Source: a virus. From it: a stretch of 49,415 nucleotides of DNA. The notes beneath the pieces were generated by a model. It was not told the DNA's origin, did no database searches, and was given only the letters and a program-made list of their open reading frames with translations. Positions 5,437-49,000 of the stretch are shown here, piece by piece (the stretch's first letter is position 1; each line of letters starts with the position of its first letter). The translations under genes were made by a program, and so were the position numbers. The stretch spans positions 1 through 49,415 of IMG/VR virus record IMGVR_UViG_3300042934_001053; one strand, given 5' to 3'.

Positions 5437-5437
5437 T

Positions 5438-11327: not shown

Positions 11328-11329
11328 TT

Positions 11330-12231: not shown

Positions 12232-12553
12232 CTTCCTCCTGAAGAGTACAAAACAAGTGAAGCTCTCTGTTTAATTCCTTATAGTTAACTACATGGTCTA
12301 TACTGAATATTTTTGTACCGTATTTGATTCTCAATGAATTATCAATGTCTTTAGTGAAACGAATAGTTATCTCATAGTTTAGACTTGTGGATTCTTTTCC
12401 GGCTTGGAGTTGCTTTCTTCCATTGCCTACACAATCGATTTTAGCCCATGCTTTTTTAAATAGTGTCCACTGCTTTTCTTGCTCATTATTAGGCTTATCA
12501 ACTAAAACTGACTTTTCAATTTCAATTCTGTGTCTTAATTCTCCTGGATTCAT
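12212..12553 (-). CDS. Head closure / head-tail adaptor protein (SPP1 gp16-like)
   Basis: 113 aa. It starts with the characteristic MNPGELRHRIEI motif. Confidence 0.7.
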   Translation of the reverse strand: MNPGELRHRIEIEKSVLVDKPNNEQEKQWTLFKKAWAKIDCVGNGRKQLQAGKESTSLNYEITIRFTKDIDNSLRIKYGTKIFSIDHVVNYKELNRELHLFCTLQEEGVYKNE

Positions 12554-27105: not shown

Positions 27106-27981
27106 TCAATCCCATCCAAGAAGTTTCTTTTCTAACTCATCCATATTTATACCACCATCTGAACCATCATATTTCCGCTGCTTGAAATTATTAAAAGTAC
27201 TATGCTTACCATTTGAATTCAGTCTATTTCCTCTAGTAGTAACTATACTGTGACAAGTCTTTTCAGCTTTCATTTTTAATACAAGTTGCTCATACTTCTC
27301 ACGTAACTTCTTAGGGCTAAGAATATTAGCTAACCAGAAACTATCTGTTTGACAGAATTTAATAACCTGTTTAACCTCTTCCAGGTCCCTTTCATCAATT
27401 CTAAGAATACTATCAAAGTCCTTAGCCCATTTTTCAAAATTAGGCTCCTTAACCTGTTCATTGTTCTTTTTAATATAGTTAAATAAGTAAACTGCTAGTC
27501 GGTATTCATTAGATTCAAACGAGAATATAATATCTTTCTTATCATTCTTTACATTCTTATCATTCTTGTTAGGTGTTACCTCTTTGTTACCTCTTTGTTG
27601 GTCCTTTGTTACCTCATTGTTAGTTGCTTTGTTAGTTTCATCATCAAAACCTTGGTAAAGTCCCCAATTTACTATTGTTATGAGCCTTCCAGTCTTTGTT
27701 GATTCGTCTGTTAGAAAATCATATTTTTTGAATTTTCCTAGTGCACTTCTAACGTTTTGTACAGATATACCTTTACCACATTTTTCACAGATAGAATCTA
27801 ATGAGGTAACAAACTGACCAGGAGCAGCTTTAAATTGTTTACCATTCCACTCCCATTCTCTGCCTTGATGGTTGGCCATTCCTAGTAGGGTTATTAATAT
27901 AACCTTTTGCTCGGGAGTGGAATTTTGCCATATTGATTTTTCAAATAACTCTCTATGGAGTTTTAACCATCCTTGGCTCAT
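27106..27981 (-). CDS. Replication initiator / replisome organiser (N-terminal winged-helix, C-terminal conserved phage domain)
   Basis: 291 aa. MSQGWLKLHRELFEKSIWQ... is typical of phage replisome organisers. The C-terminal FESNEYRLAVYLFNYIKK...SPKKLREKYEQL resembles Phg_2220_C. Confidence 0.65.
   Translation of the reverse strand: MSQGWLKLHRELFEKSIWQNSTPEQKVILITLLGMANHQGREWEWNGKQFKAAPGQFVTSLDSICEKCGKGISVQNVRSALGKFKKYDFLTDESTKTGRLITIVNWGLYQGFDDETNKATNNEVTKDQQRGNKEVTPNKNDKNVKNDKKDIIFSFESNEYRLAVYLFNYIKKNNEQVKEPNFEKWAKDFDSILRIDERDLEEVKQVIKFCQTDSFWLANILSPKKLREKYEQLVLKMKAEKTCHSIVTTRGNRLNSNGKHSTFNNFKQRKYDGSDGGINMDELEKKLLGWD
27574..27640. repeat. Iteron-like array with 11-bp phasing inside the replication gene (candidate ori)
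   Basis: The units are TGTTACCTCTT, TGTTACCTCTT, TGTTGGTCCTT, TGTTACCTCAT, TGTTAGTTGCT and (T)TGTTAGTTTCA. Just upstream, TTCTTATCATTCTT occurs twice (27536-49 and 27555-68). Confidence 0.6.
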
Positions 27982-32280: not shown

Positions 32281-32314
32281 ATAGTTATATCGAAGTATTA
32301 AGTAGGTGAAAGTA

Positions 32315-32734
32315 ATGTTTAATAGAAATAGGTTAATTGAAATTATGGAACAGAATGATGTAACAGCTTATAAATTGTGGAAACTTTCAGGAGTTGCACA
32401 GTCTACAATTAGTGATATCTTAAACAAGGATGATAAAAACCCTACAACCAAGACTCTTCAGAAAATAGCAGATGCCTTAGGAGTATCAATTGATGAATTT
32501 TTTAAAGATGATACTTTAGAAAAAACAGAAGATGCTAAACAAGACCTAGCTGCTTTTGAAGTTGTTCCAGAACAGTTTACTAATCCAGACGAAGCTAGAA
32601 CTTATGTAAAAAAACATAGGATATTTGCTTCTGAAGGCTTTAATGCGGATAAGCTTAGTGATGAGGAGATATTAAGTTTCGCGAATGCTTTATTGGAGCA
32701 GATGAGACTTGTAAGCTATAAGTATAAAAAATAG
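32315..32734 (+). CDS. XRE-family phage repressor (ImmR/CI-like, no S24 peptidase domain)
   Basis: HTH: TAYKLWKLSGVAQSTISDILNKDDKNPTTKTLQKIADALGVSIDEFF. The ATG at 32315 follows AGGTGA. It is followed by the ImmA gene. Confidence 0.8.
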   Translation: MFNRNRLIEIMEQNDVTAYKLWKLSGVAQSTISDILNKDDKNPTTKTLQKIADALGVSIDEFFKDDTLEKTEDAKQDLAAFEVVPEQFTNPDEARTYVKKHRIFASEGFNADKLSDEEILSFANALLEQMRLVSYKYKK

Positions 32735-32746
32735 GGGGTAACCTCA

Positions 32747-33169
32747 ATGGAATGGATTGACGAGATTATTATAGGTATTTTAGATATCTATGAGACGAAT
32801 AACCCTTATGAAATATTAGATGCTATGGGAATAAGCATAACTGAAGTTGATTCAGATTTCCCCTTACTACTTGGAAAGAATTCGGTTTTTATAGATACCT
32901 TAAACGTTGTTTTTATTAGAGAAGATCTTAACAAGAACCATAAATTGTTTTATTTAAGGCATGAGTTAGGTCATATTCTTTTACATCTAGACAGTCATAA
33001 CATGATGCTTCCAAACGAAGGTAAACATGAAAATGAAGCTGATTATTTTGCATTAAAATTGTCTCAGCTCAGCTTTGATGAAACAATGATGTATCAAATG
33101 ACATTTGAACAAATTGCTAGTTGTCTTGAAGTTCCTGCCAGGGCTTTGAAGAAACTAGTTAATTTGTAA
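32747..33169 (+). CDS. ImmA/IrrE-family metalloprotease (anti-repressor protease)
   Basis: It has an HEXXH motif in YLRHELGHILLH and is the downstream partner of the XRE repressor. Confidence 0.8.
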   Translation: MEWIDEIIIGILDIYETNNPYEILDAMGISITEVDSDFPLLLGKNSVFIDTLNVVFIREDLNKNHKLFYLRHELGHILLHLDSHNMMLPNEGKHENEADYFALKLSQLSFDETMMYQMTFEQIASCLEVPARALKKLVNL

Positions 33170-34040: not shown

Positions 34041-35237
34041 ATGGCGGTAAAAATCAACTATTCTAAGAACGGAAATGATTATTTTAGAGTAACCACATCA
34101 GTTGGTCGAGATAGCAATGGTAAATTAATAAGAAAAGAATTCTATGGAAAGAGTAAAAAGGAAGCTGAAGCTAAGAAAGATGACTATCTTAATGGACTAA
34201 AGAATGGACTTTCTATAGATTACAAAACTATAGTTCTTGGAAAGCTAATGCACTCCTGGTTATTCGAAATACTTAGAGTATCTAGCCATATAAAGCCTTC
34301 AACATTCCAAAGATACGAGGGAATTTTCAGAAACTACATAGAAAATAGCAACTTATACGGTATCAAGTTAAATGATATAAAATCTATTCAGATACAAAGA
34401 TATTATAACGAGCTTTATGAAAGCGGTAAGACTTACAGTCAAATATATAATCTGAATAAACTCTTAAAAAGTCTTTTAAACTATGCAGTTGAGGAAGGAT
34501 ATATTCTTAAAAATCCATGCTCTAACAAGAGAATTGTTATACCTGGACAAAGTAAAATTAAATCTACGATTAATAATGAATATGATGAAGATAATGAAGT
34601 TGTGATATATAGTAATGATGAGATCAAATTACTTAAGGCCGATCTAGAAAACCATAGACTTAAGGCTGCTATTTTACTAGATTTAGGAACCGGATTAAGA
34701 CTAGGTGAACTATTGGCATTACAGTGGTCTGATATTGATTCTGATTATTCCGAGCTAAAAGTTCAGCGAACCATTAAGGAAGTAACAGTAATAGCTGCTG
34801 ATAGAAGTAAGCAATATAAAACACTTATTCAGCCTCCCAAAACTAAGAAAAGCATCAGAACTGTTCCTATTCCATCTAGTCTTGTTGATGTTTTGAAGGA
34901 ACATAGACAAAGACAAGAAAAAGAAAAGTCGGACGCTGGAACTTCATATATTGAAAGTGATTTTGTATTTACTACTGAGTTAGGTAAAAATATTGATTCT
35001 AATAATTTTAGGCGGAGCTATAAGCGGATTCTCACCAAAGCTGGAATAGAATATAAAAAATTTCATGCACTGAGACATACTTATGCTACAAAATTATTTG
35101 AAAGAGAAGTACCTTTAAAAACTGTATCAGAGTTATTAGGTCACTCAGATATATCAATAACAGCTAATATTTACACTCATGTTATGCCAGAGGTAAAAAT
35201 TACTGCTGCTGAAAAATTAAATCATTTATTCGAATAA
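34041..35237 (+). CDS. int: Tyrosine recombinase / phage integrase
   Basis: 398 aa with an arm-binding type N-terminus and a SAM-like core. The catalytic region is GLRLGELLAL...HALRHTYATKL...LGHSDISITANIYTHV. Confidence 0.9.
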   Translation: MAVKINYSKNGNDYFRVTTSVGRDSNGKLIRKEFYGKSKKEAEAKKDDYLNGLKNGLSIDYKTIVLGKLMHSWLFEILRVSSHIKPSTFQRYEGIFRNYIENSNLYGIKLNDIKSIQIQRYYNELYESGKTYSQIYNLNKLLKSLLNYAVEEGYILKNPCSNKRIVIPGQSKIKSTINNEYDEDNEVVIYSNDEIKLLKADLENHRLKAAILLDLGTGLRLGELLALQWSDIDSDYSELKVQRTIKEVTVIAADRSKQYKTLIQPPKTKKSIRTVPIPSSLVDVLKEHRQRQEKEKSDAGTSYIESDFVFTTELGKNIDSNNFRRSYKRILTKAGIEYKKFHALRHTYATKLFEREVPLKTVSELLGHSDISITANIYTHVMPEVKITAAEKLNHLFE

Positions 35238-35250
35238 TATGTGGGAAAGA

Positions 35251-35287
35251 AGTGTGGGAATTTACACCACACTTTATTTTTTCTTTT
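35251..35287 (+). terminator. Integrase terminator
   Basis: AGTGTGG-GAATTTACA-CCACACT followed by TTATTTTTTCTTTTC. Confidence 0.6.
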
Positions 35288-35312
35288 CTAGTGTGGGAAT
35301 AATGTGGGAAAA
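35288..35312. repeat. Arm-type repeat CTAGTGTGGGAATAATGTGGGAAAA (copy 1)
   Basis: It is a perfect 25-bp direct repeat of 35506-35530. Additional TGTGGGAA sites are at 35240-47 and 35253-60. Confidence 0.85.
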
Positions 35313-35365
35313 TAGAAAAACACCTAAGTTCACATTATTGCAAACCTAGATGTTTCAATGCTTCT

Positions 35366-35414
35366 GGTGCGCCTGACAGGAGTCGAACCTGCGACCATTG
35401 GATTTGCTTTCCAA
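35366..35414 (-). other. attP core: 3' portion of a tRNA gene (T-arm, acceptor 3' strand, CCA, and possibly the anticodon arm)
   Basis: Minus strand: TTGGAAAGCAAATCCAATGGTCGCAGGTTCGACTCCTGTCAGGCGCACCA. It contains the T-loop GGTTCGACTCC and a terminal CCA. No D-arm or 5' acceptor strand is present. Confidence 0.7.
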
Positions 35415-35505
35415 TAAATTGTTATTATTGATAGCTTTCTAAAATCATTGATAATACTATACTTTCACATTTGCTTAATCTAGTACTTTTGATAACAATC
35501 TACAA

Positions 35506-35530
35506 CTAGTGTGGGAATAATGTGGGAAAA
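35506..35530. repeat. Arm-type repeat CTAGTGTGGGAATAATGTGGGAAAA (copy 2)
   Basis: Perfect copy of 35288-35312, on the other side of the tRNA fragment. Confidence 0.85.
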
Positions 35531-35667
35531 AAGAATTATTTATGTTGTCTTATTTAAATCTCTTTTAAACCAAGATCACTTATCTAATCAAACCTCATTT
35601 AGTAGCGTTAGTGAGTTTGATTTAAAAATGTATTAACTAATAGAAATCAAATTCTCTAATGGCAGCA

Positions 35668-37953
35668 TTACATTTTATCTATAGTATTTAAGATATAATC
35701 CATTTGATCATTTTCAATATTATAATTATCAATTAAATCTTCCCTTAGTCTCTTGTATTTATCTGTTAACTTCTCTATTTTATATAACTCTAATAGGACA
35801 ATTTTGTATTCATAATCCTCAGGGCTTTTGCAACAGAGTTCTTCTAATTTTTGTATTGCTATATCACAATTTCCAGATTCCTTAAATGCCAAAGCCTTAA
35901 GAAAAAGAGACCAATCATGATTTTTGTTAATAATAATTAAATCAGTACAACAATTATATATAAATTTAGTAAGATTTCCATACCCGTTTTTTTGTAATAT
36001 ATTTGACATAAAAAACGCTGCATCTATGAATCTATTATTACTTATTAAATTTGTTAGATCTTTAGCATCATCTTCATCAATTATAATTTTAAAATTATCA
36101 AATACTTTATTTATGTTATCATTAAGCTCATCCTTTAATAAAACATCATATGTTCTTTTTGAAAATTCTATATATGATGCTAATTTACTATCAAAATATA
36201 TTTCACTCAATAATCCTAAACATATTAGAACATTTTGTATACTGCATTTTGATTTATTTATGATAGACATAACAAATTGCATATATTCTAAGTTATAAAT
36301 AGCACCGCTTTTTTCCTTGGAATTTAAATATTTTAGCCCTTCTGATTTTAACTCAATACTGATGATAGCAAGCATAGAATAATAAACAAAATATAAATCA
36401 TCAATATATGCATTTTCTTTTAACAAAACAAATATATCATTATTTTTTGATAAAGTAATTTTACCAAAAGCATATATATAGTTCAATCTAATATGAGGAT
36501 CCTCTTTATTTTCTTCATATGTATTAATTAAGATATATAATAAACTTTTTGGACACCAAGTATATGATGCCATAAATAAACCAACAATTTTAATCTTTTC
36601 ATCTTGTGGTGTATCATCACTCATAAGCTTTTGATAAAAAAACTCATGGGATAATCTATAATCAATATAATCATATGATTTGTAGTTAGTTGATACTATT
36701 TCAGTAATTTGGATTTTTTTAACTATAGAAGAGTGTTGAAAAGTTTGTTTAAAATATTGTAACGATTCCTCAGTCCCTTGGCTTATATACTCTTCATAAT
36801 ATTTATCATAGTATTCTATACTGGAATAATCTACATTTACGTTAAAGCTAGTTGGAACACCATTATTGTCAAACGGTCTTTGAGTCTGATGTTCAACTGA
36901 TATAACATCATGAAGTACAGAGTTATTCATAAGATATTGTCTAAAAATAAGTTCATTTGAACAAATACTTTTAAACAGACTAGAAAACTTAGTGTATGTG
37001 TTTTCCAAGTCGTCTTGGGTACATTTATTAAGCATATCTAATATATCATTCAAATCTGCTGTTATATCTATATGACCACAGATTTTATTTCTTACATCTC
37101 TTAAAGACTGTATTTTTTCTTTATATTTATAGTTCTCTTTAAAATTCACTAGTATAGTATATGCCTTTTCAAATGATTTATTTTCCAGATATTTATTCTC
37201 TATAATTAAATCTAACCCATCCATCGCCTGTTTTGCATCTGCAGCAACATTCCTTGTAAACAAGGCATCAGAATAATTAATTAAATCGAGTATTAGCAAT
37301 TCCTTAAATAGATTTCTTATTAAAGAATTATTATCAATTTTTAAAATCCTTAATTCATAGTTAATAATAAGTTCTAAAGACTTTAGAATCCCAGCTCTTT
37401 CATGAAGTGGATGACCGGACAAAGCTGCCACCGTATTAGGACGAGTTAATGCAAGTACATCATTTGCAATTCTCGGTCTATTCTCTAAATCCATTACAGA
37501 TGATATAGATTCTACATCTTTTCCTATAGTACTTCCAATAATATGTAGGATGCTTGTAAAATCCTCATACCAAACTTCATTTTTAAACATATTATATATC
37601 TCGATGATACTTTTAATAAAAAAATCTATTTTATAGTATTCAATCTCGGACCATATATCAATTCTTGTTCCAAAATCCATTACTTTAAAATGCCCACCGA
37701 AACTGTTTCTTTGCTTGTACAAAAACTCTTTATACAGTTCCTCAAGCGCATTTAAACTTCCTTTTATTCTTTTTCTTCTACTTTTTTCATTTATATCTAT
37801 CTGATTATTAGCTTGTCTTGCAAGAGTAATAAATGCATCTAATCTGATCATTACAAATCTTGATAGAGCTCGTTTATAAAATCCACAGCTTTTTAACCTT
37901 AATAGTTGATCAAGTATGATAATTTCCTTAGTGCAATATTTTAACTTATCCAT
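35668..37953 (-). CDS. Large hypothetical protein with two HEPN-like RNxxxxH motifs and a C-terminal TPR-like helical region
   Basis: 761 aa. The motifs are KQRNSFGGHF (R82-H88) and VRNKICGHID (R288-H294). The C-terminal LKALAFKESGNCDIAIQKLEELCCKSPEDYEYKIVLLELYK looks TPR-like. Confidence 0.35.
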   Translation of the reverse strand: MDKLKYCTKEIIILDQLLRLKSCGFYKRALSRFVMIRLDAFITLARQANNQIDINEKSRRKRIKGSLNALEELYKEFLYKQRNSFGGHFKVMDFGTRIDIWSEIEYYKIDFFIKSIIEIYNMFKNEVWYEDFTSILHIIGSTIGKDVESISSVMDLENRPRIANDVLALTRPNTVAALSGHPLHERAGILKSLELIINYELRILKIDNNSLIRNLFKELLILDLINYSDALFTRNVAADAKQAMDGLDLIIENKYLENKSFEKAYTILVNFKENYKYKEKIQSLRDVRNKICGHIDITADLNDILDMLNKCTQDDLENTYTKFSSLFKSICSNELIFRQYLMNNSVLHDVISVEHQTQRPFDNNGVPTSFNVNVDYSSIEYYDKYYEEYISQGTEESLQYFKQTFQHSSIVKKIQITEIVSTNYKSYDYIDYRLSHEFFYQKLMSDDTPQDEKIKIVGLFMASYTWCPKSLLYILINTYEENKEDPHIRLNYIYAFGKITLSKNNDIFVLLKENAYIDDLYFVYYSMLAIISIELKSEGLKYLNSKEKSGAIYNLEYMQFVMSIINKSKCSIQNVLICLGLLSEIYFDSKLASYIEFSKRTYDVLLKDELNDNINKVFDNFKIIIDEDDAKDLTNLISNNRFIDAAFFMSNILQKNGYGNLTKFIYNCCTDLIIINKNHDWSLFLKALAFKESGNCDIAIQKLEELCCKSPEDYEYKIVLLELYKIEKLTDKYKRLREDLIDNYNIENDQMDYILNTIDKM

Positions 37954-38084
37954 TATATCACTTCCATTTATTTGTTATTATCCAATTGTACCCAAATTAA
38001 CTTTTCATATACCTATTATATCGCATATATATAAGTTCTTGTATTTCCATTGTTCTGAATTAACATTCCACTGAATAATGATTT

Positions 38085-38912
38085 TTATGGTTTCAAATAA
38101 TTTACCCCAAATATTTCTATATCTTTAAGTTGCCTTATGAAACTTTTCATATTTTTATAAAGTTCAGCTTGATAAACCTCAGTGATAACAGCATCTACAT
38201 AAGGTATAAAACAACTCATTTTAACATCCATAACATCATTTGGGTTGATTGATTTCTTCCTATCATAGATTTTCATAAATTGAGAATACTCCATTGCCCT
38301 AATTCCTGGCAATCTTTTTATGTCTAAGTCATTTATAATATCTATACCATGAACTCTAAGATCCTTTATAATAGTTTCCCTTTCTAATTTAAAGTATAGT
38401 TTTCTTAAATCGGATGGCTTTAACACATTAGATATACTGTAATAACTAGCTTTTGTGTCGTTCCATGTATTTGCTACTTCTTTAAGTCCAACAATTTCTA
38501 ATATGATATTATTTTTTATTACCTCGTTATTCCATAAATTTTCAAGAAACTTTTGTAATTCAAAACTGTCAGTCGGACCGAATGGAGAAAATGCATGAAT
38601 TATATTCCCATCGAGTACCACTTCTCTATTATTACAAAACGCATTATATTCCTCGTCAATAATTAGCTTATATGGAAGGAACATCATACATGGTATAATA
38701 GAAAAAATTTCTATGAATTTCTCATAAATGTCTTTATAAGGTTTCAGCTCAAAAACATTATATATAGAAAATACAGGTGCATATTTTAATGAATCTAGAT
38801 TTAAAAACTTATCTATAAAATTACTGAGACTCTGATTATTATTTAGCACTATTTCTCTGAGTGCATTAGTATCTAGATATACAAGTTTGTAGTCGTTACT
38901 ACCAATTTTCAT
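38085..38912 (-). CDS. Hypothetical protein with a PIN-like N-terminal motif
   Basis: 275 aa. It has KLVYLDTNALREIV near the N-terminus (a PIN beta1 D-T-N signature) and PYVDAVITE near the C-terminus. Confidence 0.3.
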   Translation of the reverse strand: MKIGSNDYKLVYLDTNALREIVLNNNQSLSNFIDKFLNLDSLKYAPVFSIYNVFELKPYKDIYEKFIEIFSIIPCMMFLPYKLIIDEEYNAFCNNREVVLDGNIIHAFSPFGPTDSFELQKFLENLWNNEVIKNNIILEIVGLKEVANTWNDTKASYYSISNVLKPSDLRKLYFKLERETIIKDLRVHGIDIINDLDIKRLPGIRAMEYSQFMKIYDRKKSINPNDVMDVKMSCFIPYVDAVITEVYQAELYKNMKSFIRQLKDIEIFGVNYLKP

Positions 38913-39049: not shown

Positions 39050-39793
39050 TTAAAAGTTATATTTGATAGGGTTTGCTGCTCCCTTCTTTCTATATTCCTT
39101 TGGAACTCTTTTACGTAAGTATATTTTTTTTATTGAATCATCGGCTTCATATCCAACGAATCCATACCTTTCTGGCCTATCTCCATTGAATTCGGGGAAA
39201 TTAGCTATAGTAGCAGATTTCCATTCAACTGGGATAAACACTCCTACAATGATACCTTGTTTAACTGCCAACACATAGTCTACTCTTTTTATTTTAGCTT
39301 TACTTAACTTCCATGCATATCTTGTTGCATCATAGATACTTCGTTCAGAAACAGATTTATTAATCGTAATCATGAGGACCTTATGCTCAAAAATAGCTTC
39401 TTGAGACATATATTTATTTATTATTTCTAAAGCATTCATAGGACCATACTCATTACTACCATGTCCACCCATTATGTTTGATACACCTGGATATGCATCA
39501 ATTAAAGCCGCTTCTACTTCTAATGCACATTTCTCATCCATCCCATGCCGGTGTATTACATGAATTACTTCTAAGCCAGCAACTATTATTTCTCTAATTA
39601 TTTGAATTTTATCATCAACTTCATCGAAGTTATCCATAGTAAGAGCACCTTTCATATGGTAAAAAACTCTATTTCCCTTACCTTTACCTATATAAAATGT
39701 TTCTCCATTTCTTGGATCTATAAGTCTATAAACATAATATTTTAATTCGTCAATTACCTCATTAGGAAACCTTTCCAATGCATTATTACTCAT
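39050..39793 (-). CDS. GIY-YIG nuclease-domain protein with an unassigned C-terminal domain
   Basis: YYVYRLIDPRNGETFYIGKGKGNRVFYH carries the GIY, YIG and Arg elements, with ALEVEAALIDAY downstream. 247 aa. Confidence 0.7.
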   Translation of the reverse strand: MSNNALERFPNEVIDELKYYVYRLIDPRNGETFYIGKGKGNRVFYHMKGALTMDNFDEVDDKIQIIREIIVAGLEVIHVIHRHGMDEKCALEVEAALIDAYPGVSNIMGGHGSNEYGPMNALEIINKYMSQEAIFEHKVLMITINKSVSERSIYDATRYAWKLSKAKIKRVDYVLAVKQGIIVGVFIPVEWKSATIANFPEFNGDRPERYGFVGYEADDSIKKIYLRKRVPKEYRKKGAANPIKYNF

Positions 39794-39939: not shown

Positions 39940-40464
39940 CTAGGAATGAGTTAAATTAAAGAGTCTACTTAGAAGTTCGGAAGTATCTTTAATTTTCATA
40001 AATCTACTTTTAGGAATTTCACGGATAGAAGGTCTTTCTTTCTTTATTCCTAGAGAATTGCCTTTAGTATGTTTTGTTATTCTAAGATTATCTATGCCTG
40101 GTAATACTTCTCCTGGATTTCCTCCAAAAAATAAGTATTCTAAGCTAATTCTATTTTTTTCTTTATCAATATGCCTAGTCGTCCATACTACACATCCACT
40201 CGGTTTTTCAGCTAAGGCGACATTTATATTGACGGTAGATCTTTTTGCGCCTTCTATAGATGTCTTCAGTTGAATATGCCTTATAATTCCATTACACTCT
40301 AAAACTAAATCATAACCAGAACTATCTATTTCTGAGTGTAGTACTTCTATACATTGATTAAATTTAAACCATGCTTCTTGCAACACTTCTGAAATAAAAA
40401 CATGTTCAACTAACTGTTCATAAAAGTTTGACTTTACATAACTTTCTGTCTTTTCATCTACCAC
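39940..40464 (-). CDS. Small PD-(D/E)xK-like (DUF4365-like) protein
   Basis: 174 aa. HVFISEVL...EIDSSGYDLVLECNGIIRHIQLKTS has a D...(Q)xK arrangement. Confidence 0.35.
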   Translation of the reverse strand: MVDEKTESYVKSNFYEQLVEHVFISEVLQEAWFKFNQCIEVLHSEIDSSGYDLVLECNGIIRHIQLKTSIEGAKRSTVNINVALAEKPSGCVVWTTRHIDKEKNRISLEYLFFGGNPGEVLPGIDNLRITKHTKGNSLGIKKERPSIREIPKSRFMKIKDTSELLSRLFNLTHS

Positions 40465-41037: not shown

Positions 41038-41640
41038 TTACTTTAGTGTATTAACTTTAACAAGATATGTATGTTCTTCAAGTAACCTTCTGTAATCACT
41101 TCTTAATAAATCTAATATTATTAATTCTTTTGTTTTTACATCATAATGCATAACATGCTCATCATTTTCTAAGTTAGCCTTATTTCTTAAGTTTGCTAGT
41201 ATACCAAATAAGCTTTCATGCCATTCTTTGTTATACTGAACCATACAACTTATTTTTAACTTATCTGAAATATTTTTGTCACCGTAAATGTTGTTGACTG
41301 CTTCATGTCTTCTACCATAAGCTTCCCCAAGCTGGTAGAATTCTTCAATCATGTCCATTGTTATATGTATTCTATATAATTCTTTACAATTTAGTTCTAC
41401 CATTTCTAAATCCTCCAGTACATCTTGTTTTATAACTTTTAGTGTTCTTGGCATAGTCTCGTCCCAGGTAATATACCCTTTTTTCTTTAACCGGCGTAAG
41501 TATCCATGTGTTGTAGAGCTAGATTTTAAGCCAACTAACTTCGTGAGCTCTCTTACTGACGGAGCTATCCTATTTTTATTTATGTATATATTTATCATTT
41601 GCAGCAACTCTTGTTGCTTCTTCGTTAGCTTTTCTCTCAT
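41038..41640 (-). CDS. LexA-type winged-helix DNA-binding domain protein lacking the S24 peptidase domain
   Basis: LTKKQQELLQMINIYINKNRIAPSVRELTKLVGLKSSSTTHGYLRRLKKKGYI fits LexA_DNA_bind. The C-terminal 120 aa are unassigned. Confidence 0.65.
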   Translation of the reverse strand: MREKLTKKQQELLQMINIYINKNRIAPSVRELTKLVGLKSSSTTHGYLRRLKKKGYITWDETMPRTLKVIKQDVLEDLEMVELNCKELYRIHITMDMIEEFYQLGEAYGRRHEAVNNIYGDKNISDKLKISCMVQYNKEWHESLFGILANLRNKANLENDEHVMHYDVKTKELIILDLLRSDYRRLLEEHTYLVKVNTLK

Positions 41641-42052: not shown

Positions 42053-42649
42053 TTAATTATTCCTTTTCTGAATTGTATAGGTGTTGAAACCACCTTCTGG
42101 TGCATCGTTAAAATAAGTTTCTCCAGTTTCTTTTACATTCATAGCATATGTTATTCCGCCTCCACCATCTTTCACACCTTTAATCTCTAACTTACCTTTA
42201 GCTGGTACTATAAAACTTTTTACACCATGACTTATCATGAAAGGTTCTCCATAAGTCTTATCATCATGAATTAGTTGAACATAGTCACCATCTATTGCTG
42301 CAAAATCCCAAATACTAATATTAACTTCACTGGTCTTCGAATCCAGAATTATTTCTTGATTTCTCTGTTCGATTTTCTTGTCCTTATCAAATAATACTGC
42401 TCCTGGATAACTATCTTTTGAGATACCTGAGTTTATTATTTGCTGTACAGCTACACTAGGTTTAGATAATAGAAGTAATAATAAAATACAGCCTATAACT
42501 TCCAACACTAAAAAGATAGAAGCAATAGCAGCTATAACCTTAAACATTGATTTAGTCTTCCTCATAATAAATATTAGCAAACAAATTAACGCTCCAGACA
42601 ATCCTATCTTTAAGAATGTAACTACTATGTTATAGAATGAATTAAACAC
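42053..42649 (-). CDS. Hypothetical membrane protein (2 TM segments plus an extracytoplasmic domain)
   Basis: 198 aa. The TM stretches are VTFLKIGLSGALICLLIFIM and VIAAIASIFLVLEVIGCILLLLLL. Confidence 0.55.
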   Translation of the reverse strand: MFNSFYNIVVTFLKIGLSGALICLLIFIMRKTKSMFKVIAAIASIFLVLEVIGCILLLLLLSKPSVAVQQIINSGISKDSYPGAVLFDKDKKIEQRNQEIILDSKTSEVNISIWDFAAIDGDYVQLIHDDKTYGEPFMISHGVKSFIVPAKGKLEIKGVKDGGGGITYAMNVKETGETYFNDAPEGGFNTYTIQKRNN

Positions 42650-42765
42650 ACATATCAGTCCTTTAATCTATTTAACAGAATTTAATTTTCTAAAATCATA
42701 AATATTTCAGAAATGATGAATGACTTCGCTTTATTAACAAAGTCTTTATCAACTTAAACACTATA

Positions 42766-42838
42766 TTTTTACAATATTCTACACAATATAAAAAAATCCT
42801 TCAAAATAATAAAAAAGTCAGAAGGATTTCTCACACTT
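42766..42838 (-). promoter_or_regulatory. Accessory-cassette box, copy D (diverged): TTGAAG-17-TAGAAT plus a degenerate hairpin
   Basis: The -35 is at 42799-804 and the -10 at 42776-81 (minus strand). AAAAAAGTCAGAAGGATTTCTC resembles AAAAAGCCTAGAAGGATTTCTC. Confidence 0.4.
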
Positions 42839-42933
42839 GGAACTGTTACTTAATTATTCAGGAAAATTCTCATACTATTATATTTATCTTATGTTTTATC
42901 CTAGATTAATATATTTCAAAACGAAGTTTCAAT

Positions 42934-43749
42934 TTACTTTTCAAAAATATACCCTGATAATTTGTATATATTATCATAAGAATTTCTAACTATAATTCTA
43001 GCATCCACACATCTTTCGTCCTGTGGATTCCATTTGACTCCATTCCTATACTTTTGTATAACATCTCGCACAGATAGACACGAATTACTGTTGTTGATGA
43101 GGTCATATATAAATTCAAATGAGTTTCCTGTTTTATATGCTACATATTCGATAATTGTCCGGTCAATACCACTTACTTTATGAAATGCTGAAATGACGCC
43201 ATCTAGTAAGGCTTTCTGTATATTAACTATGTTAACTTCTTCTTTCTCGGGTTTTAAAATTTCAATATATATCCCAAATTCTCCCTCATAATCGCTTTTA
43301 TTAATAGTTACGCTATCTGATTTTTTTAAAGCAATCCAATAGTCAAGTGGCTTTTTTGAAGTACTTGGTTTATCGATAGCAACATTACTCCATTCAGCGA
43401 TGATATTAGTTCTGTTATCCTCTATTGAATCTATAAAACTGTACTGATGAAAATATCTGAAATCTTGCTGTTCAGAAGTCCTTTCTAATGAAAAACATAC
43501 ACCTTTAGTATCAAGTCTTTTGAAATTAGATGTGCCTACATTATAAAATAAAATATTCTCAACATCAAAAAACTCAACTTCGTTAGTCTGTAATTTGGCT
43601 ACAAGATATTGTTTTTGCGGAGTTAATCCCCTTAAAGCATTTACTAGGTCATTCTTTAGTTTTTTTCTCCAATCCTTTGGTTCAAGACTTAATCGTTTCT
43701 GGGTCTTTACAGTTAATAAATTATCTTCTTTTATAATTTCATACTGCAT
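42934..43749 (-). CDS. Hypothetical protein
   Basis: 271-aa ORF. No family was recognised. Confidence 0.55.
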   Translation of the reverse strand: MQYEIIKEDNLLTVKTQKRLSLEPKDWRKKLKNDLVNALRGLTPQKQYLVAKLQTNEVEFFDVENILFYNVGTSNFKRLDTKGVCFSLERTSEQQDFRYFHQYSFIDSIEDNRTNIIAEWSNVAIDKPSTSKKPLDYWIALKKSDSVTINKSDYEGEFGIYIEILKPEKEEVNIVNIQKALLDGVISAFHKVSGIDRTIIEYVAYKTGNSFEFIYDLINNSNSCLSVRDVIQKYRNGVKWNPQDERCVDARIIVRNSYDNIYKLSGYIFEK

Positions 43750-43854
43750 TACTACACCTCGTCATTTGTTATTGCCTATCATCTCTCATATTAATTAATT
43801 CTATAAATGATAGTTTTCCCCTTCTTTTGGTAATAATTTAGATGAGGTTATTTT

Positions 43855-43938
43855 ATGAAAGCAAAATCGTACGCGAGAATTGATATAAGTATTCTACTTG
43901 CAGTTGCTGCAGCTCTGGTTGTATTTTGGGCGAAATAA
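43855..43938 (+). CDS. 27-aa hydrophobic peptide (candidate type I toxin-like or membrane peptide)
   Basis: MKAKSYARIDISILLAVAAALVVFWAK. It has a GAGG RBS 8 nt upstream and an extended -10 (TGGTAATAA) at 43828-36. It is not in the track. Confidence 0.35.
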   Translation: MKAKSYARIDISILLAVAAALVVFWAK

Positions 43939-43969
43939 AAAAAGCCTAGAAGGATTTTCATCTTCTAGG
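43934..43969 (-). terminator. Hairpin terminator of the CCTAGAAG family, overlapping the 3' end of the small plus-strand ORF
   Basis: CCTAGAAG (43945-52) pairs with CTTCTAGG (43962-69). On the minus strand it is followed by CTTTTTTTATTT. Confidence 0.55.
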
Positions 43970-44145
43970 AACTATCCTTTCATTAATTGTCACTTAGACA
44001 CAAAAATTACATATAAAGACCCGTACTCCTGACGCCGAGAAGTCTAGAGCTCTTCACATGGTGAAAGAATGGGCATTGGCCTCTTTGAAGTATTACTCAA
44101 AACATCCAAAATTGACTTAAGTGCTTTGTTAGTCTAAAGACATAT

Positions 44146-45012
44146 TTAGATTTCAAATACTACTGTTCCAGAAGTAACTTCAATAATGATAAATTTATTT
44201 TTGTTTCTGATTAGTTTAAAATCGACTTCATGATCATTTATATGTAATTTTTCTTTCAATTCTAGTTTTATTAAATCAATATTTTTCACTATCTCTTTTT
44301 CTGCCTCATGTAGTATTGTTAATAAATCATCAGCTTTAATAGTATGATTAATATTTGTTCTTGCTGAAGTGAGTCCCCCACCAATTGGAGTAAATACTTT
44401 CCCATTAACCTCATAAAGAACATATGCTCCGCCTTTTCTTAATTGTTCTATTTCTTTATCACTAGGCTTATGAACACTCATAACATCTTTTAACTGATAT
44501 GGCTCCATCATTTCAGGCCAGTTTCTTTCAAAAATCTGCAATAATTCCTGTTTTGCAAATATACTCTTCGTCTTATGCTTTTGGACATCTATAAAATATA
44601 CGTCATTATCATATACCTTCACAAATAATAAATAGTCTGATCTCTCCATGAAGAAGTTTCCCTTAGAATCTTTCTTATTACTTAAATGTAGATGATGTAT
44701 TCCCCAATCATCTAAAAGATAATCTAGAAAATCCGCATCTAGTATATTTCTGCTTAAGTAAGGATTAACATCTTCCCCTTTTGTAAACTTTGATTCAATT
44801 TCGTTTAATATTCTTAAGAGGTCACCTTCAATTTTTAAGAGTTTAACACAATCTGTCTTGTGTACGTTTCTAGGTCTTATCGGTATCAATTTGTTACCAA
44901 TATTATAATATTGAACTAAAATCTTATGGATATTGCCAGTTTCATCATATTTTATCCCAAGGCTTTTCATTTGACTTACAACTTCACTTCTTAAATCTTC
45001 AAATAAATTCAT
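44146..45012 (-). CDS. Hypothetical protein
   Basis: 288-aa ORF with RBS GAAGGAAGG. No family was recognised. Confidence 0.6.
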   Translation of the reverse strand: MNLFEDLRSEVVSQMKSLGIKYDETGNIHKILVQYYNIGNKLIPIRPRNVHKTDCVKLLKIEGDLLRILNEIESKFTKGEDVNPYLSRNILDADFLDYLLDDWGIHHLHLSNKKDSKGNFFMERSDYLLFVKVYDNDVYFIDVQKHKTKSIFAKQELLQIFERNWPEMMEPYQLKDVMSVHKPSDKEIEQLRKGGAYVLYEVNGKVFTPIGGGLTSARTNINHTIKADDLLTILHEAEKEIVKNIDLIKLELKEKLHINDHEVDFKLIRNKNKFIIIEVTSGTVVFEI

Positions 45013-45154
45013 AATATATTCCTTCCTTCAATATGCATTCGCCTAATGTTTCACGTTGCCGACATTCCTGAAGCTTAGCACGACGCGCTTGGTGAATGAT
45101 TGTGCCTTGATACCGATTTAATTATTAACCGTTATATTGATTATGAACTACAAA

Positions 45155-45182
45155 TTTATACCTTACTATATAAGAAATTCAA
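45155..45182 (-). promoter_or_regulatory. Candidate promoter TTGAAT-16-TATAAA for the 288-aa gene
   Basis: Minus strand: TTGAATTTCTTATATAGTAAGGTATAAA. It would give a leader of about 140 nt. Confidence 0.35.
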
Positions 45183-45218
45183 CCAAAGCTTACGGAAGCA
45201 TTTCGTTAAGAGAATTAA

Positions 45219-46403
45219 TCAAAGCTTAAAATATTCTATTAGGAACCTTCTGAAAATAAATCCCCCAACATCTCTTAGCATAAGAAGATTAATATATGGT
45301 AGTTGCATTATTACACCTATATCAGATTTAGATAATTGCGGATTACTTACCCCACCATAATATGACCTATTACTAAAAAACTCGCCAGAATGCACATATG
45401 CACTTCTCTTTTTGTAATAATCATCAATTATTCCTTTATCCATATATCCTTCTGAATAATTTTCAATAAGTTTTATAACTTTTTGCCTTATAGAAAAGAT
45501 ATTCTGGTTACAACTTTCACATCTTGAGTCGTTTGAATCCATTATGCTCGCCAACACTTCAAATGAAGACATATACAACATATTGGCTACTTCTTCAAAA
45601 GATAATCCATATTCCACTTGTTTAAAATCATAATTATCGTAATCATATATAAAACTTGTATACTTAGTTGCTGTATGAAAAAGTCTACATGCATCTATAT
45701 ATTTCTCAAATTCATCATCGTGTTGCTGACTAATAATTTTATCAATAGCTTCAACACTTTTTTCCATTACTTTAATTCTATTATTAATTATAGGATAGGT
45801 ATCAACCCAGTTTTCGCTTGCAAAATTGTTATAATCGTTTATTTCTGGTAAGGCTTTAACATTATCTGTTTGAAAAATCACATGGCTAATCTGAGTCGAT
45901 AAGAAATCTATAACCTTACCATTTATCTTTGCTAATTCACTGCCCACATCTTTTTTGTCAAAGCCGTTTATTGCAAAAATAATTGAAAACTCATTATCAT
46001 AATTTATTATCCTAAAATTCTTACCACAGTAGTTGTCAATTCCTTCACCAATTGTTTTATAAGCCATTCTTAAGTATACAGTACTAATATCCTTTTTATA
46101 GTTTTTGGCCGCATCAACTATTGTAATGAGCATCTCATAGTCTCTATTTACATCTCCATTAGAATCTTGTGGTTCAAAAATTAGCTTCTTAATACAGCCT
46201 CGTATTTCATATTTTATTTTGACATAATACAAACCAGATAAGACATTAGTTGATACAAACCCTAAACTTATTATTTTATTTTTTGCATCTTTATATGGCG
46301 TAAAATTCCAGCCCATCTGCCCATCATTTCTCAGTTTTGTCCATAAAGCTCTTAGAAACATATTTGATTCTTCAACTGTAGTATAATTAATATCAAATTC
46401 CAT
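45219..46403 (-). CDS. Hypothetical protein with a C-terminal HEPN-like RSxxxH motif (Apea-like)
   Basis: 394 aa from the ATG at 46403 behind AGGAG (the track ORF uses the GTG at 46436). A CESC pair is followed by YYKKRSAYVHSGEF (Rx4H). Confidence 0.4.
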   Translation of the reverse strand: MEFDINYTTVEESNMFLRALWTKLRNDGQMGWNFTPYKDAKNKIISLGFVSTNVLSGLYYVKIKYEIRGCIKKLIFEPQDSNGDVNRDYEMLITIVDAAKNYKKDISTVYLRMAYKTIGEGIDNYCGKNFRIINYDNEFSIIFAINGFDKKDVGSELAKINGKVIDFLSTQISHVIFQTDNVKALPEINDYNNFASENWVDTYPIINNRIKVMEKSVEAIDKIISQQHDDEFEKYIDACRLFHTATKYTSFIYDYDNYDFKQVEYGLSFEEVANMLYMSSFEVLASIMDSNDSRCESCNQNIFSIRQKVIKLIENYSEGYMDKGIIDDYYKKRSAYVHSGEFFSNRSYYGGVSNPQLSKSDIGVIMQLPYINLLMLRDVGGFIFRRFLIEYFKL

Positions 46404-46471
46404 CTTCGTCTCCTGTTCTACTAATACGATTTTCACAGATTAATTGATGATTTCTCTTAACATTAAAAATT

Positions 46472-46517
46472 TCCGAATTATATTTCGGATTATAACGAAA
46501 TGTAGTAGTATTTCCAA
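46472..46517 (-). promoter_or_regulatory. Promoter TTGGAA-17-TATAAT followed by the inverted repeat TCCGAA-N6-TTCGGA
   Basis: The -35 is at 46512-17 and the -10 at 46489-94 (minus strand). The inverted repeat at 46472-89 overlaps the -10/+1 region. Confidence 0.55.
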
Positions 46518-46549
46518 CGTTTATATCGGAAAATATCTCTGTAGATGTT

Positions 46550-46647
46550 TTTTACACTATAATATTCCTATGGTAATATATTCTACAAAATACTATAAAT
46601 TCCTCTAAAAACTCAAAAAAGCCTAGAAGGATTTCTCTCTCTAGGCT
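46550..46647 (-). promoter_or_regulatory. Accessory-cassette box, copy B: hairpin terminator (46620-47) plus TTTAGA-18-TAGAAT
   Basis: AGCCTAGA...TCTAGGCT is followed by a T-run on the minus strand. The -35 is at 46604-09 and the -10 at 46580-85. TTTTTACACT is shared with copy C. Confidence 0.5.
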
Positions 46648-46704
46648 CGTACTATTTTATCTTATGAGAATATTATGAAGCAAAATCAATGCTAAGTTAA
46701 AAAA

Positions 46705-46713
46705 TGGTATAAT
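46705..46713 (+). promoter_or_regulatory. Extended -10 promoter TGGTATAAT for the 100-aa plus-strand gene
   Basis: It lies 47 nt upstream of the ATG at 46760. The gene's RBS is AGGAGG. Confidence 0.5.
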
Positions 46714-46759
46714 ATAAATATAAAAATTATTATATGTAAGTAGGAGGCAGCGGATAAAT

Positions 46760-47062
46760 ATGGATCCAATAGTAATTGAAGGTTTAAAAGCAATTAAAAA
46801 TCGTATTAATATGTCAACAGGATTTGTGCATCCTGATGATAAGGCAAGCGTTATAGAGCTTTTAAAAAAGCTTAATGATGCAGGACATATTTTAGTCCCT
46901 TCACAAATAACAAGTTGGGCTTTACAAAATGGATTTCAACCTAAATATGCTCAAGAGCTAGAAGGATTTGCAGCAGGTGTAATTTCTGGTAAGAAATATA
47001 AAATCGGAAAGAATCACTGGAATGAGAATATTATAAAAGTATTAGAAGAAAGATCTAAATAA
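46760..47062 (+). CDS. Hypothetical protein
   Basis: 100-aa ORF with a strong RBS (TAGGAGGCAG) and its own promoter and terminator. Confidence 0.6.
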   Translation: MDPIVIEGLKAIKNRINMSTGFVHPDDKASVIELLKKLNDAGHILVPSQITSWALQNGFQPKYAQELEGFAAGVISGKKYKIGKNHWNENIIKVLEERSK

Positions 47063-47095
47063 TCAATAATCATTTAAACCTACTTAACTCTCTGT

Positions 47096-47132
47096 TCAGC
47101 TTGGCTTTAAATATATTTTCAAGCCAAGCTGA
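47096..47132. terminator. Bidirectional terminator between convergent genes
   Basis: There is a 12-bp stem, TCAGCTTGGCTT / AAGCCAAGCTGA, with a 13-nt loop. Confidence 0.65.
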
Positions 47133-47168
47133 GTGAATTTATTGTTTAATGTAGGTGAAGTTTGCGCT

Positions 47169-48086
47169 TTACTTTTCGTAACTAGGAACAATCATCTTTT
47201 CTTTATGCCTTATTTCCCAGCCGTCATGTAAGTTGATTTGAACAATTTGATCTCTACTATCAAATATTACATCTGCTTGTTTGCCCCATTTTAATTTAAT
47301 TACTTCTCTTCTTAATCCGTTTTGTAAATTTATGATTTGTTTATGTACTATTTGATCTTCAGGTATTTTTAAAGAGTACTCTGACAACTCATATGGGAAT
47401 TTAGTATCTGCAACATTACCATCTATATCCATTTCATAGTATGATATTTGTCCATGTATATCTATAAAATCAATATATAAAAGGCCATTTTTTAAGATAT
47501 ATATTGCTTCTGCTCCATTAGGAAATTTAACTGTATGTCTTTTTCCTTCTATTATTTGTGATTCAATTCCATAGTTATCTATTATTGTCCATCCTTTGAA
47601 AGATTCCTCTTCTTTTTTATCTGGCAGTTGCCCTTGAATAGCTAACTTATTTAATAAATCAATGATTTTAGTTGAGGTATCACTGCTCTCAGTTATATGC
47701 CTTTTCTCAGTTAAGGCTTTGTTCAGTGCAAAATCCCTCATCATATTACTATGGAACATCTTAATAAAATAACTTAAAGCCTCTTGTGTAACATCCTTAA
47801 CTCCATCAAAACCTTTAACAGATAATTCATTCTGTAAATCAATGTTATTTCCATAAAATAAGCTTTTTATTATACAATCAATATTTGATTGCTTCGCTAA
47901 AAAACTTGAACAAGGTTTACCAAATTCATCACCATATTTATCAAAAAAGTTTTTACTTGTTTCTTCTAAAACACAATAGACTTTCTGACTTACCTCATCA
48001 TAATCTGGAAAAACATCTTTTAGAACATTTTTAATTATGTCATATATACCATTTCCAAATACGCCTAATAAAATTTCTCCAAACAC
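47169..48086 (-). CDS. Hypothetical protein
   Basis: 305-aa ORF with a Gly-rich hydrophobic N-terminus (MFGEILLGVFGNGIYDII). No family was recognised. Confidence 0.55.
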   Translation of the reverse strand: MFGEILLGVFGNGIYDIIKNVLKDVFPDYDEVSQKVYCVLEETSKNFFDKYGDEFGKPCSSFLAKQSNIDCIIKSLFYGNNIDLQNELSVKGFDGVKDVTQEALSYFIKMFHSNMMRDFALNKALTEKRHITESSDTSTKIIDLLNKLAIQGQLPDKKEEESFKGWTIIDNYGIESQIIEGKRHTVKFPNGAEAIYILKNGLLYIDFIDIHGQISYYEMDIDGNVADTKFPYELSEYSLKIPEDQIVHKQIINLQNGLRREVIKLKWGKQADVIFDSRDQIVQINLHDGWEIRHKEKMIVPSYEK

Positions 48087-48226: not shown

Positions 48227-49000
48227 TTAAAAATTCCTAATATAATCTGCATTAGCAAATATTTGATATTCCTCTATTCTTCTGTTTAACAACCCTTGTA
48301 AAATCTTTCCTCCAGCTTTTGACCATGCTGCAAAATTATCTTTTAGACTGCTATCTCTTACTCCTGCAAGAATTCTGCTGTAAAGTGTACTTCCTAAAAG
48401 ACCACCTACTCCACAGTTGTATGCAAAAGAACATAGAGCATCAAATTGGTTTTGAGTTAATACAACACCTTTACTATCTAAGCTTGTCTTTATTTTCTTT
48501 GCCATACCATTAATCTCTTCCTTCAGAAATTGTGTTGCCTGAACTTCTGTTATCTCTCCTAGTGCAACATATTCTTTCTTTGTAGTGCCATAGCCTATCG
48601 TTTTTACTCCTGCAGGATCAATATATGAAGTTGCACGAAAGCCCTCATAGTGCTTTACAAAATCAACTAGCTTATCAGAAACTAAGCTAGTGTTTTCTAT
48701 TAATGCACCATCTGCACTAAAGCTATAAGACTTTCCATCTATAACAGAGATGCAATTTGCAATCATCACTCCATCTTTACCTAAATAGAACCGCTTGTTG
48801 TTATCCTGTAGCCAGCCAACTTTCATTACTCCGTTGTTGTCAAGGTAATACCATTTGTCATTCTCTTTTAGCCATCCAGTAACCATAGTTCCATTAGAAT
48901 TTAAATAGTACCACTTTCCTTCAACTTGCTGCCACCCAGTTAAAAGAATGCCTGAAGTCTCATCTTCGAGACACCATTTCCATTTAGCCATATTATTCAC
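48227..49000 (-). CDS. Endolysin: N-terminal CW_binding_1 repeats plus a C-terminal GH24 phage lysozyme domain
   Basis: The repeats are GWQQVEGKWYYLNSNGTMVTGWLKENDKWYYLDNNGVMKVGWLQDNNKRFYLGKDGVM. The lysozyme motif is HYEGFRATSYIDPAGVKTIGYGTT. Confidence 0.85.
   Translation of the reverse strand: MNNMAKWKWCLEDETSGILLTGWQQVEGKWYYLNSNGTMVTGWLKENDKWYYLDNNGVMKVGWLQDNNKRFYLGKDGVMIANCISVIDGKSYSFSADGALIENTSLVSDKLVDFVKHYEGFRATSYIDPAGVKTIGYGTTKKEYVALGEITEVQATQFLKEEINGMAKKIKTSLDSKGVVLTQNQFDALCSFAYNCGVGGLLGSTLYSRILAGVRDSSLKDNFAAWSKAGGKILQGLLNRRIEEYQIFANADYIRNF

Follow-up and report, generated by a model that had tools for sequence, protein, structure and literature searches.

The window analysed here, the whole 49,415-nucleotide (nt) stretch of the IMG/VR virus record IMGVR_UViG_3300042934_001053, is a complete, circularly assembled temperate-phage genome. 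Its longest open reading frame (ORF; 35668-37953, minus strand, initiated at ATG) encodes a 761-amino-acid (aa) protein, which we predict to be a self-contained, single-gene anti-phage ribonuclease (RNase) of the abortive-infection type that is borne by a prophage and belongs to a previously unnamed family, a reading that we regard as probable. By profile comparison, the N-terminal 345 residues of this protein are two homologous AbiU2-type HEPN domains in tandem, and the ~380 C-terminal residues form a rapidly evolving alpha-solenoid with TPR repeats at its end. An earlier note on this DNA had already singled out the ORF as the largest of the accessory genes, with two RNxxxxH motifs of HEPN type and TPR-like repeats, and these elements have all been borne out by our data.

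A regular-expression scan of the protein finds exactly two Rx4-6H motifs, the predicted catalytic motifs R82-N-S-F-G-G-H88 (37690-37710, minus strand) and R288-N-K-I-C-G-H294 (37072-37092, minus strand), just where the earlier note had placed them. By chance 1.1 such motifs are expected and two or more are found in 31% of shuffled sequences, so two matches alone are not unusual; the stricter RNxxxGH occurs twice in 0/20,000 shuffles, although this pattern was picked after seeing the data. Therefore, conservation among relatives is the test that counts. Word-index homology searches retrieved only the query itself or TPR proteins, and an exhaustive HMMER scan of 1.84 billion cluster representatives was needed to collect the relatives (181 proteins at E<=1e-3, 49 of them at E<=1e-30). 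Over all 150 representatives in the alignment, R82 is kept in 136/136, H88 in 137/137, R288 in 134/136 and H294 in 131/134 cases, the exceptions at R288 and H294 being fragments or two odd sequences. Hence both pairs of catalytic candidates, whose conservation the earlier note had left as a check, show no or almost no variation among about 135 diverse representatives that share <50% identity with each other. Among the 68 full-length relatives, with 16-31% identity to the query, the invariant positions are R37, R82, H88, D165, R171, D229, R288 and H294, and R28, R82, H88, R288 and H294 are still invariant when 29 short forms are added. The residue behind the arginine is polar in both motifs (residue 83: D in 84, H in 27 and N in 18 of 136; residue 289: N in 94 and D in 34 of 134), and R285 in front of motif 2 is kept in 67/68 full-length relatives. 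As family consensus we obtain R-[DHN]-[KR]-[LF]-[GSA]-[AG]-H-x-Q for motif 1 and R-x-x-R-[ND]-x-x-[GC]-[AG]-H-[LI]-[DE] for motif 2.

The assignment to a HEPN lineage comes from the query together with its relatives. In a Pfam search, HEPN_AbiU2 (PF18734) is the sole family that matches the query (residues 257-318, E 0.004), and when 59 relatives were scanned singly, 35/59 matched the same family at E<=0.01 (best E 2.2e-9), while no other non-TPR family recurs among them. By extrapolation, the match of the best relative should exceed the Pfam cut-off. The matches cover motif 1 in some relatives (P0098, residues 65-98; P0104, 68-130; P0125, 64-129) and motif 2 in others (P0013, P0033, P0095, P0113, P0129), so that the AbiU2-like resemblance suspected in the earlier note is real and extends to either motif. 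As the query stays below the threshold and its relatives match, its HEPN_AbiU2 membership is one of transitive homology. Besides, the two halves of the N-terminal module are related to each other: hhalign aligns residues 1-205 with residues 206-345 at a probability of 90.9% (E 1.1e-6), and R82..H88 falls on R288..H294. BLASTP of residues 1-200 against 201-409 detects no similarity, and the profile-profile comparison was needed to reveal the duplication. Since the halves align profile to profile with their motifs superposed, the N-terminal module is best described as an internal tandem duplication of an AbiU2-type HEPN domain.

The predicted structure fits this description. AlphaFold2 models the full-length protein with a predicted local distance difference test score (pLDDT) of 94.2 and a predicted template-modelling score (pTM) of 0.92, and the N-terminal module alone with 96.6 and 0.94, respectively. 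HEPN domain 1 (residues 1-205; 37339-37953, minus strand) consists in the DSSP assignment of helices 2-18, 24-49, 54-86 and 94-121, followed by an insert with a small beta-hairpin, and is supported by the Pfam matches in P0098, P0104 and P0125 and by hhalign. Motif 1 forms the end of helix 54-86, which is preceded by helix 24-49 with D40 (D in 53 and N in 12 of 68) and followed by the helices at 94-121. For HEPN domain 2 (residues 206-345; 36919-37338, minus strand), which is marked by the Pfam match of the query and the invariant D229, DSSP gives helices 182-204 and 210-231, an insert at 232-275 and helices 277-292 and 301-333; here D229 sits in helix 210-231, motif 2 at the end of helix 277-292 and helices 301-333 come after. 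Each motif thus lies at the end of a long predicted helix and runs into the next loop, as in the published description of HEPN domains, whose hallmarks also include a polar residue (N, D or H) after the arginine, a helix 2 with an acidic residue and inserts that often separate helices 2 and 3 (PMC3710099). An additional conserved element is the loop D165-x-L-A-x-T-R171-P-N-T (37432-37461, minus strand) in the insert between the two HEPN cores, with D165 and R171 kept in 131/141 and 125/143 of all representatives; it may serve as a substrate-binding element.

The relatives fall into two size classes, about 80 proteins of 700-800 aa, alignable over their whole length, and about 30 of 340-400 aa, whose alignment covers residues 1 to ~355 only. 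The 345-residue module accordingly also stands alone in proteins of ~360 aa, and one short-form gene (L014) is complete with unrelated neighbours, i.e. a solo gene. Judged from these alignments, the N-terminal module is an evolutionary unit that also occurs on its own. Members were found in Bacteroidota, Bacillota, Alpha- and Betaproteobacteria and Acidobacteriota; every name given to a relative by its source is "hypothetical protein", and as the clusters at 90% identity hold only 1-4 members, the family is sporadic and patchy. For the query itself, no informative match came from PADLOC, PHROGs, NCBIfam or the sequences in PDB.

Most relatives lie on chromosomes or megaplasmids, and their surroundings are suggestive of defence. 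An all-against-all BLAST of the ORFs from 12 loci and the window yielded no conserved partner gene; the only shared ORF clusters are the HEPN proteins themselves and overlapping-frame artefacts of GC-rich loci, and the upstream genes of the closest relatives are pairwise unrelated to each other and to the 275-aa ORF upstream of the gene in the window. This agrees with the stand-alone gene proposed in the earlier note, and the window as well as seven sets of relatives' loci present a defence-gene or mobile-element setting. In a Sphingobacterium thalpophilum metagenome-assembled genome (L002), an AIPR gene (10465-12279) directly follows the homologue, and a type I HsdR comes next. One homologue comes directly after a Gabija-like pair of GajA-like (ATPase plus OLD-TOPRIM) and GajB-like (UvrD) genes (L027). 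Other homologues are accompanied by a 1455-aa NACHT-type protein (L012), by an MmeI-type enzyme, an EVE protein and McrB/McrC in Alicyclobacillus curvatus (L018), by a 1640-aa Mrr-NACHT protein and, immediately downstream, a phage integrase (L023/L024), or by integrase and Bro-N genes (L020-22). The single relative among 2.9 million viral contigs (IMG/VR, L016) is found where host sugar genes meet a prophage lysogeny module.

Two of these loci deserve a remark of their own. The homologue in L016 is placed between an intact epimerase gene and the 3' fragment of a second epimerase-family gene (1178-2200 and 5170-5898), beside an ImmA/helix-turn-helix module of the prophage, and the element may have entered a host sugar-epimerase gene or duplicated a part of it. 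Next to the closest homologue, P0002, a 253-aa gene (L017, 106-867) lies 11 nt upstream; it contains R-N-I-A-G-S-H and a weak match to a NACHT N-terminal helical domain and may likewise be HEPN-like.

The genomic setting also bears on whether the enzyme is aimed at other phages at all. An RNase that benefits the phage itself, as prophage addiction or toxin module, as a nuclease for host takeover or lysogeny control, or as counter-defence factor, would be in keeping with a phage-carried gene at a prophage edge, with the frequency of HEPN toxins in toxin-antitoxin pairs (PMC3710099) and with a cargo block that also houses a LexA-like regulator and several unknown ORFs. We nevertheless consider this rather unlikely: most relatives are not in phages, but on chromosomes or megaplasmids beside restriction, McrBC, Gabija-like or NACHT genes, no antitoxin-like gene is conserved next to them, and beyond the one viral relative mentioned above there was none in the GenBank phage set, where tblastn gave no match.

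A number of observations weigh against a self-contained defence RNase. With 17.1 bits for the full-length query and 20.5 bits for its N-terminal module, the match to HEPN_AbiU2 stays below the gathering cut-off of 26.8. Foldseek retrieved no HEPN structure for the N-terminal module (best E 0.78 in PDB and 1.3 in BFVD), albeit as a weak tool for divergent all-helical bundles, and the profile of this module matched no PDB sequence. No PADLOC model matches the protein (E<=1) or its short relatives, which marks it as unlisted, not as non-defensive. Two loci (L014, L019) lack any defence context and show ordinary metabolic genes around the homologue. Finally, Lactococcus lactis AbiU2 was not toxic when expressed in Escherichia coli (PMC3985639), and the AIPR gene behind the homologue in L002 belongs to the family of AbiU1 (PMC3632139). 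In the search for structural relatives, the only PDB sequence match listed for the N-terminal module, 2k4v, was discarded as an insignificant RxxLxAH string.

The Pfam score and the Foldseek result would be in keeping with a protein that is no HEPN enzyme, but a helical protein whose R..H strings have another role, e.g. the binding of ligands or nucleotides, as in those HEPN domains that are non-catalytic binding domains (PMC3710099, Table 1). Regarding the HEPN four-helix fold that the earlier note had called for, the outcome is indeed divided: the high-confidence helix layout fits both domains, whereas the structure search itself came back without a HEPN entry. However, non-catalytic HEPN families have lost Rx4-6H (PMC3710099), which is invariant here twice, the relatives match the AbiU2 HEPN model down to the E-value of 2.2e-9, and helix topology, polar residue and acidic residue all fit a HEPN domain. 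A non-enzymatic protein is therefore highly improbable.

The AIPR neighbour and the lack of toxicity of AbiU2 rather bear on a second possibility, namely that the protein is a modulator or sensor subunit and not the killing enzyme, like AbiU2 of the lactococcal two-gene system AbiU. It would then control an effector of AIPR/AbiU1 type or another one elsewhere, or the neighbouring 275-aa ORF or PD-T4-3 homologue. In lactococci, AbiU1 alone reportedly gave resistance, and AbiU2 is said to have dampened it. The gene pair in L002 mirrors the lactococcal AbiU1/AbiU2 arrangement. In contrast, neither the window nor any of the remaining loci contains an AIPR gene or another conserved neighbour, the short form exists as a solo gene, and the fact that both arginines and both histidines are strictly invariant throughout a phylogenetically very broad set of relatives speaks for catalysis and not for scaffolding, so that we regard a mere modulator as unlikely. 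For defence by the AbiU2 HEPN lineage we found a single piece of experimental support, a preprint (10.64898/2026.03.17.712381) that reports protection against T4 and T7 by an integron-cassette protein carrying an AbiU2 HEPN domain.

In the C-terminal half, conservation is much lower, with a mean pairwise identity of 0.18 past residue 345 compared to 0.29-0.30 in the two HEPN domains. It starts with an extended linker (residues 346-378; 36820-36918, minus strand), near the start of which the short, ~360-aa members end according to their alignment and which lies in a segment without regular secondary structure (342-378). A small junction domain follows (residues 379-433; 36655-36819, minus strand), composed in DSSP of two helices and a long beta-hairpin (410-433) that leads to R433 and H436; these two residues (46/68 and 59/68, respectively) are exceptions among the conserved C-terminal positions, which are mostly structural (L, G, P, A). 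From residue 434 on, helical hairpins continue without interruption to residue 760 in the AlphaFold2 model. The first part of them, residues 434-640 (36034-36654, minus strand), is a variable alpha-solenoid that we propose as sensor or regulatory domain, and the remainder, residues 641-761 (35671-36033, minus strand), comprises TPR-like repeats with the conserved A699 and P711. For this last part, the family profile matches PDB sequences of TPR proteins over residues ~640-755 (E 4e-13 to 1e-6; 4e-13 to 5e-8 for the consensus TPR proteins together with the OGT TPR domain). The query alone matches no Pfam TPR model at E<=1, a few of its relatives do, and Foldseek with the full model gave only TPR and solenoid proteins with weak E-values. 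The TPR-like C-terminus read from the sequence in the earlier note is hence supported by the family profile and the modelled solenoid. Effectors fused to sensors are expected to look like this, with a catalytic module that is conserved and a repeat domain that varies, and the variability and repeat type of this half suggest such a sensor role.

Taken together, a mechanism can be proposed for the tandem-HEPN protein as a single-gene defence RNase. The active site of HEPN RNases is formed by two Rx4-6H motifs across a dimer interface (PMC13043305), which in Cas13 lies within one chain (PMC12165695). Ordinary HEPN proteins reach this composite site by homodimerisation; here, the two HEPN domains would pack as an intramolecular pseudo-dimer and the two R/H motifs would build one composite, metal-independent RNase site, as in Cas13. 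The solenoid/TPR half might hold this site inactive and sense infection by binding a protein of the infecting phage, for which HepS with its tail-tip protein as well as DSR-type and Avs7/Dsr1-type sensors are precedents. Upon activation, cleavage of tRNA or other cellular RNA would halt translation and abort the infection. The prophage would express the gene as a moron beside attP, and the lysogen would be shielded from superinfecting phages while the resident phage would not act as trigger.

The position of the gene is in line with prophage-borne cargo. An exact 127-bp direct repeat at the ends of the window (1-127 and 49289-49415), which spans the full 49,415-bp record, indicates the circular assembly of a complete phage genome. 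The large terminase of this phage reaches no more than 42% identity to its counterparts in a human faecal phage and in Butyrivibrio, Bacillus and Clostridioides phages, which points to a novel phage with a Bacillota host, and megablast with the structural half of the window found no related phage. Past the endolysin gene (48227-49000) begins a 12-kb block of minus-strand cargo genes, whose final member is the tandem-HEPN ORF. The complete gene (35668-37953, with its stop codon at 35668-35670) is supported by the ORF listing, by an N-terminus that aligns residue for residue with the full-length relatives and by the confident model. With 26.0% GC it is the lowest-GC gene of the cargo block; the window as a whole has 32.2%, its structural module 35.3%. 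Between its stop codon and the tyrosine integrase gene (34041-35237, plus strand) lies the attP region (35240-35535), in which three copies of the arm-type repeat TGTGGGAATAATGTGGGAAAA (35240-35531) surround a tRNA 3' half (35368-35420, minus strand) with the anticodon loop AAGCAAA, read as Cys-GCA. The tRNA match to Rfam is below threshold (21.5 bits, E 0.056), as expected for a fragment, and ARAGORN found no complete tRNA; the 3' half suggests integration of the phage into a tRNA-Cys gene. As this is a typical attP layout, the tandem-HEPN ORF is the outermost gene at one end of the prophage. The very AT-rich composition, the place as last gene before attP and the separate upstream gap, on which the earlier note had based its view of the gene as cargo, were thus all recovered.

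The gene is flanked by possible signals of its own expression. Just beyond the stop codon, the repeat search revealed an inverted repeat with 16-nt arms of 88% complementarity (35608-35659), a possible transcription stop. The upstream intergenic gap of 131 nt (37954-38084, minus strand) contains GGAAGTG 8 nt before the ATG, read as ribosome-binding site, and a TATAAT box; it may hold a putative promoter of the gene itself, and a scan for consensus promoters gave no full match in this gap. Elsewhere in the phage genome, the early/replication region contains short tandem repeats (27531-27634; periods of 9, 11 and 22 nt) that may be iterons of a replication origin.

Several other genes of the cargo block (all minus strand) are of note. 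Two genes and 1.1 kb upstream of the HEPN gene, a 247-aa GIY-YIG protein (39050-39793) matches PADLOC PD-T4-3, a known single-gene defence, nearly end to end (E 1.5e-109) and in addition PHROG 5356 and Pfam LEM-3_GIY-YIG. The 275-aa ORF immediately upstream of the HEPN gene (38085-38912) has no family match in Pfam, PADLOC, PHROGs or NCBIfam and is not conserved beside relatives of the HEPN protein; its N-terminus KLVYLDTNALREIV resembles the first strand and aspartate of a PIN-type nuclease. A 174-aa ORF (39940-40464) with a weak, sub-threshold match to a PD-(D/E)XK endonuclease (PDDEXK_5, E 0.003) may be another small nuclease. In the 200-aa product of 41038-41640, Pfam recognises a LexA-type DNA-binding domain (E 4e-19) and PHROG a "transcriptional repressor"; the gene is separate from the phage's own repressor/ImmA pair at 32306-33169. 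Between the endolysin and the defence genes, five successive ORFs (198, 271, 288, 405 and 305 aa; 42053-48086) make up ~6 kb of accessory genes in the moron region and have zero matches in Pfam or PHROGs.

In comparison with known systems, the protein is closest to the AbiU2-type HEPN proteins (PF18734; PMC3710099), the only family detected, which both halves of the N-terminal module resemble with their motif R-[N/D]-x4-H. A 2013 survey recorded operons in which AbiU2 genes accompany Sel1 (TPR-like) repeat proteins and restriction-modification genes (PMC3710099). Here, in contrast, two such domains are joined in one chain, and in the long form the repeat domain is fused to them and not encoded beside them. 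Also unlike lactococcal AbiU, no ORF of the cargo block in the window has an AIPR/AbiU1 match. The term "undescribed", which the earlier note had used for this effector, therefore holds for one part only: neither PADLOC v2 nor our literature searches yielded a description of tandem AbiU2-HEPN proteins, be it with the TPR half or without it, whereas AbiU2-type HEPN domains and the theme of HEPN plus TPR/Sel1 repeats have been on record since 2013. Since the AbiU2 HEPN lineage and prophage-encoded single-gene HEPN defence were known before, the new tandem architecture comes as a moderate surprise.

A functional parallel is HepS of the Salmonella prophage Gifsy-1, a single-gene HEPN anticodon nuclease triggered by a phage tail-tip protein (PMC13043305). 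HepS is likewise prophage-encoded, without conserved partner and often near integrases, and it combines sensing with killing, being opened by a tail-tip peptide and cutting the anticodon loops of tRNA. It is smaller than 250 aa, though, with one HEPN domain, a homotetrameric assembly and no repeat domain, unlike the 761 aa and two HEPN domains found here. Other HEPN RNases such as the anticodon nucleases PrrC and RloC are also latent and released by phage infection to cut tRNA (PMC3710099, PMC3632139), but they are single HEPN domains per chain fused to an ABC-type ATPase and have restriction-modification partners, none of which is present here. With regard to the overall build, Dsr1/DSR2-type proteins and the HEPN protein with an Avs7/Dsr1 sensor similarly combine an N-terminal toxic effector with a long sensor of helical repeats, by which a structural protein of the phage is recognised; for Avs7/Dsr1-type sensors this is the capsid protein, and they are also fused to a HEPN protein without nucleoside triphosphatase (PMC13581612). 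In Dsr1/DSR2 the effector is SIR2 and not a tandem HEPN, and a PADLOC search with the full-length protein gave nothing at E<=1, so that no sensor homology to listed defence proteins was detected. Comparison of PDB chains with the query, the full-length profile, the N-terminal module profile and its fold gave no match bar the C-terminal TPR proteins.

If confirmed, the tandem-HEPN proteins would constitute a compact single-gene defence family, whose ~180 clusters (50% identity) are spread over Bacillota, Bacteroidota, Pseudomonadota and Acidobacteriota. The natural pair of a 360-aa catalytic module and a 750-aa sensor-bearing form would provide a clean system for studying how a repeat sensor gates a nuclease, and a protein-triggered RNase could have diagnostic uses.

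A further comparison is the one with Cas13, including the compact Cas13an (PMC12165695), which also has two HEPN domains in one polypeptide and forms its site intramolecularly. A search of the window for a Cas13-like guide RNA was negative: it contains no CRISPR array, as the earlier note had stated, nor any spaced or tandem repeat arrays, and no Rfam family reaches its gathering score. Unlike Cas13, the protein has no crRNA (CRISPR RNA)-binding lobe, Foldseek returned no Cas13 structure, and its HEPN lineage is AbiU2, compared to AbiD/F for Cas13. Cas13 has been proposed to originate from two defence HEPN genes, close relatives of each other, that fused (PMC12165695), and the tandem HEPN described here reflects the same kind of event; it shows that this architectural step, thought to underlie Cas13, has occurred in the AbiU2 lineage, too. 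As a tentative extension of the defence reading, which we hold to be possible rather than probable, the protein could be the first representative of guide-free, single-chain pseudo-dimeric HEPN nucleases, in which an AbiU2-type HEPN gene duplicated and fused and later acquired a TPR/solenoid domain, which directly reads a phage protein and thereby switches on one composite RNase site. Such an enzyme, parallel to the proposed origin of Cas13 in a separate HEPN lineage, would be the protein-activated counterpart of the RNA-activated collateral RNase of Cas13.

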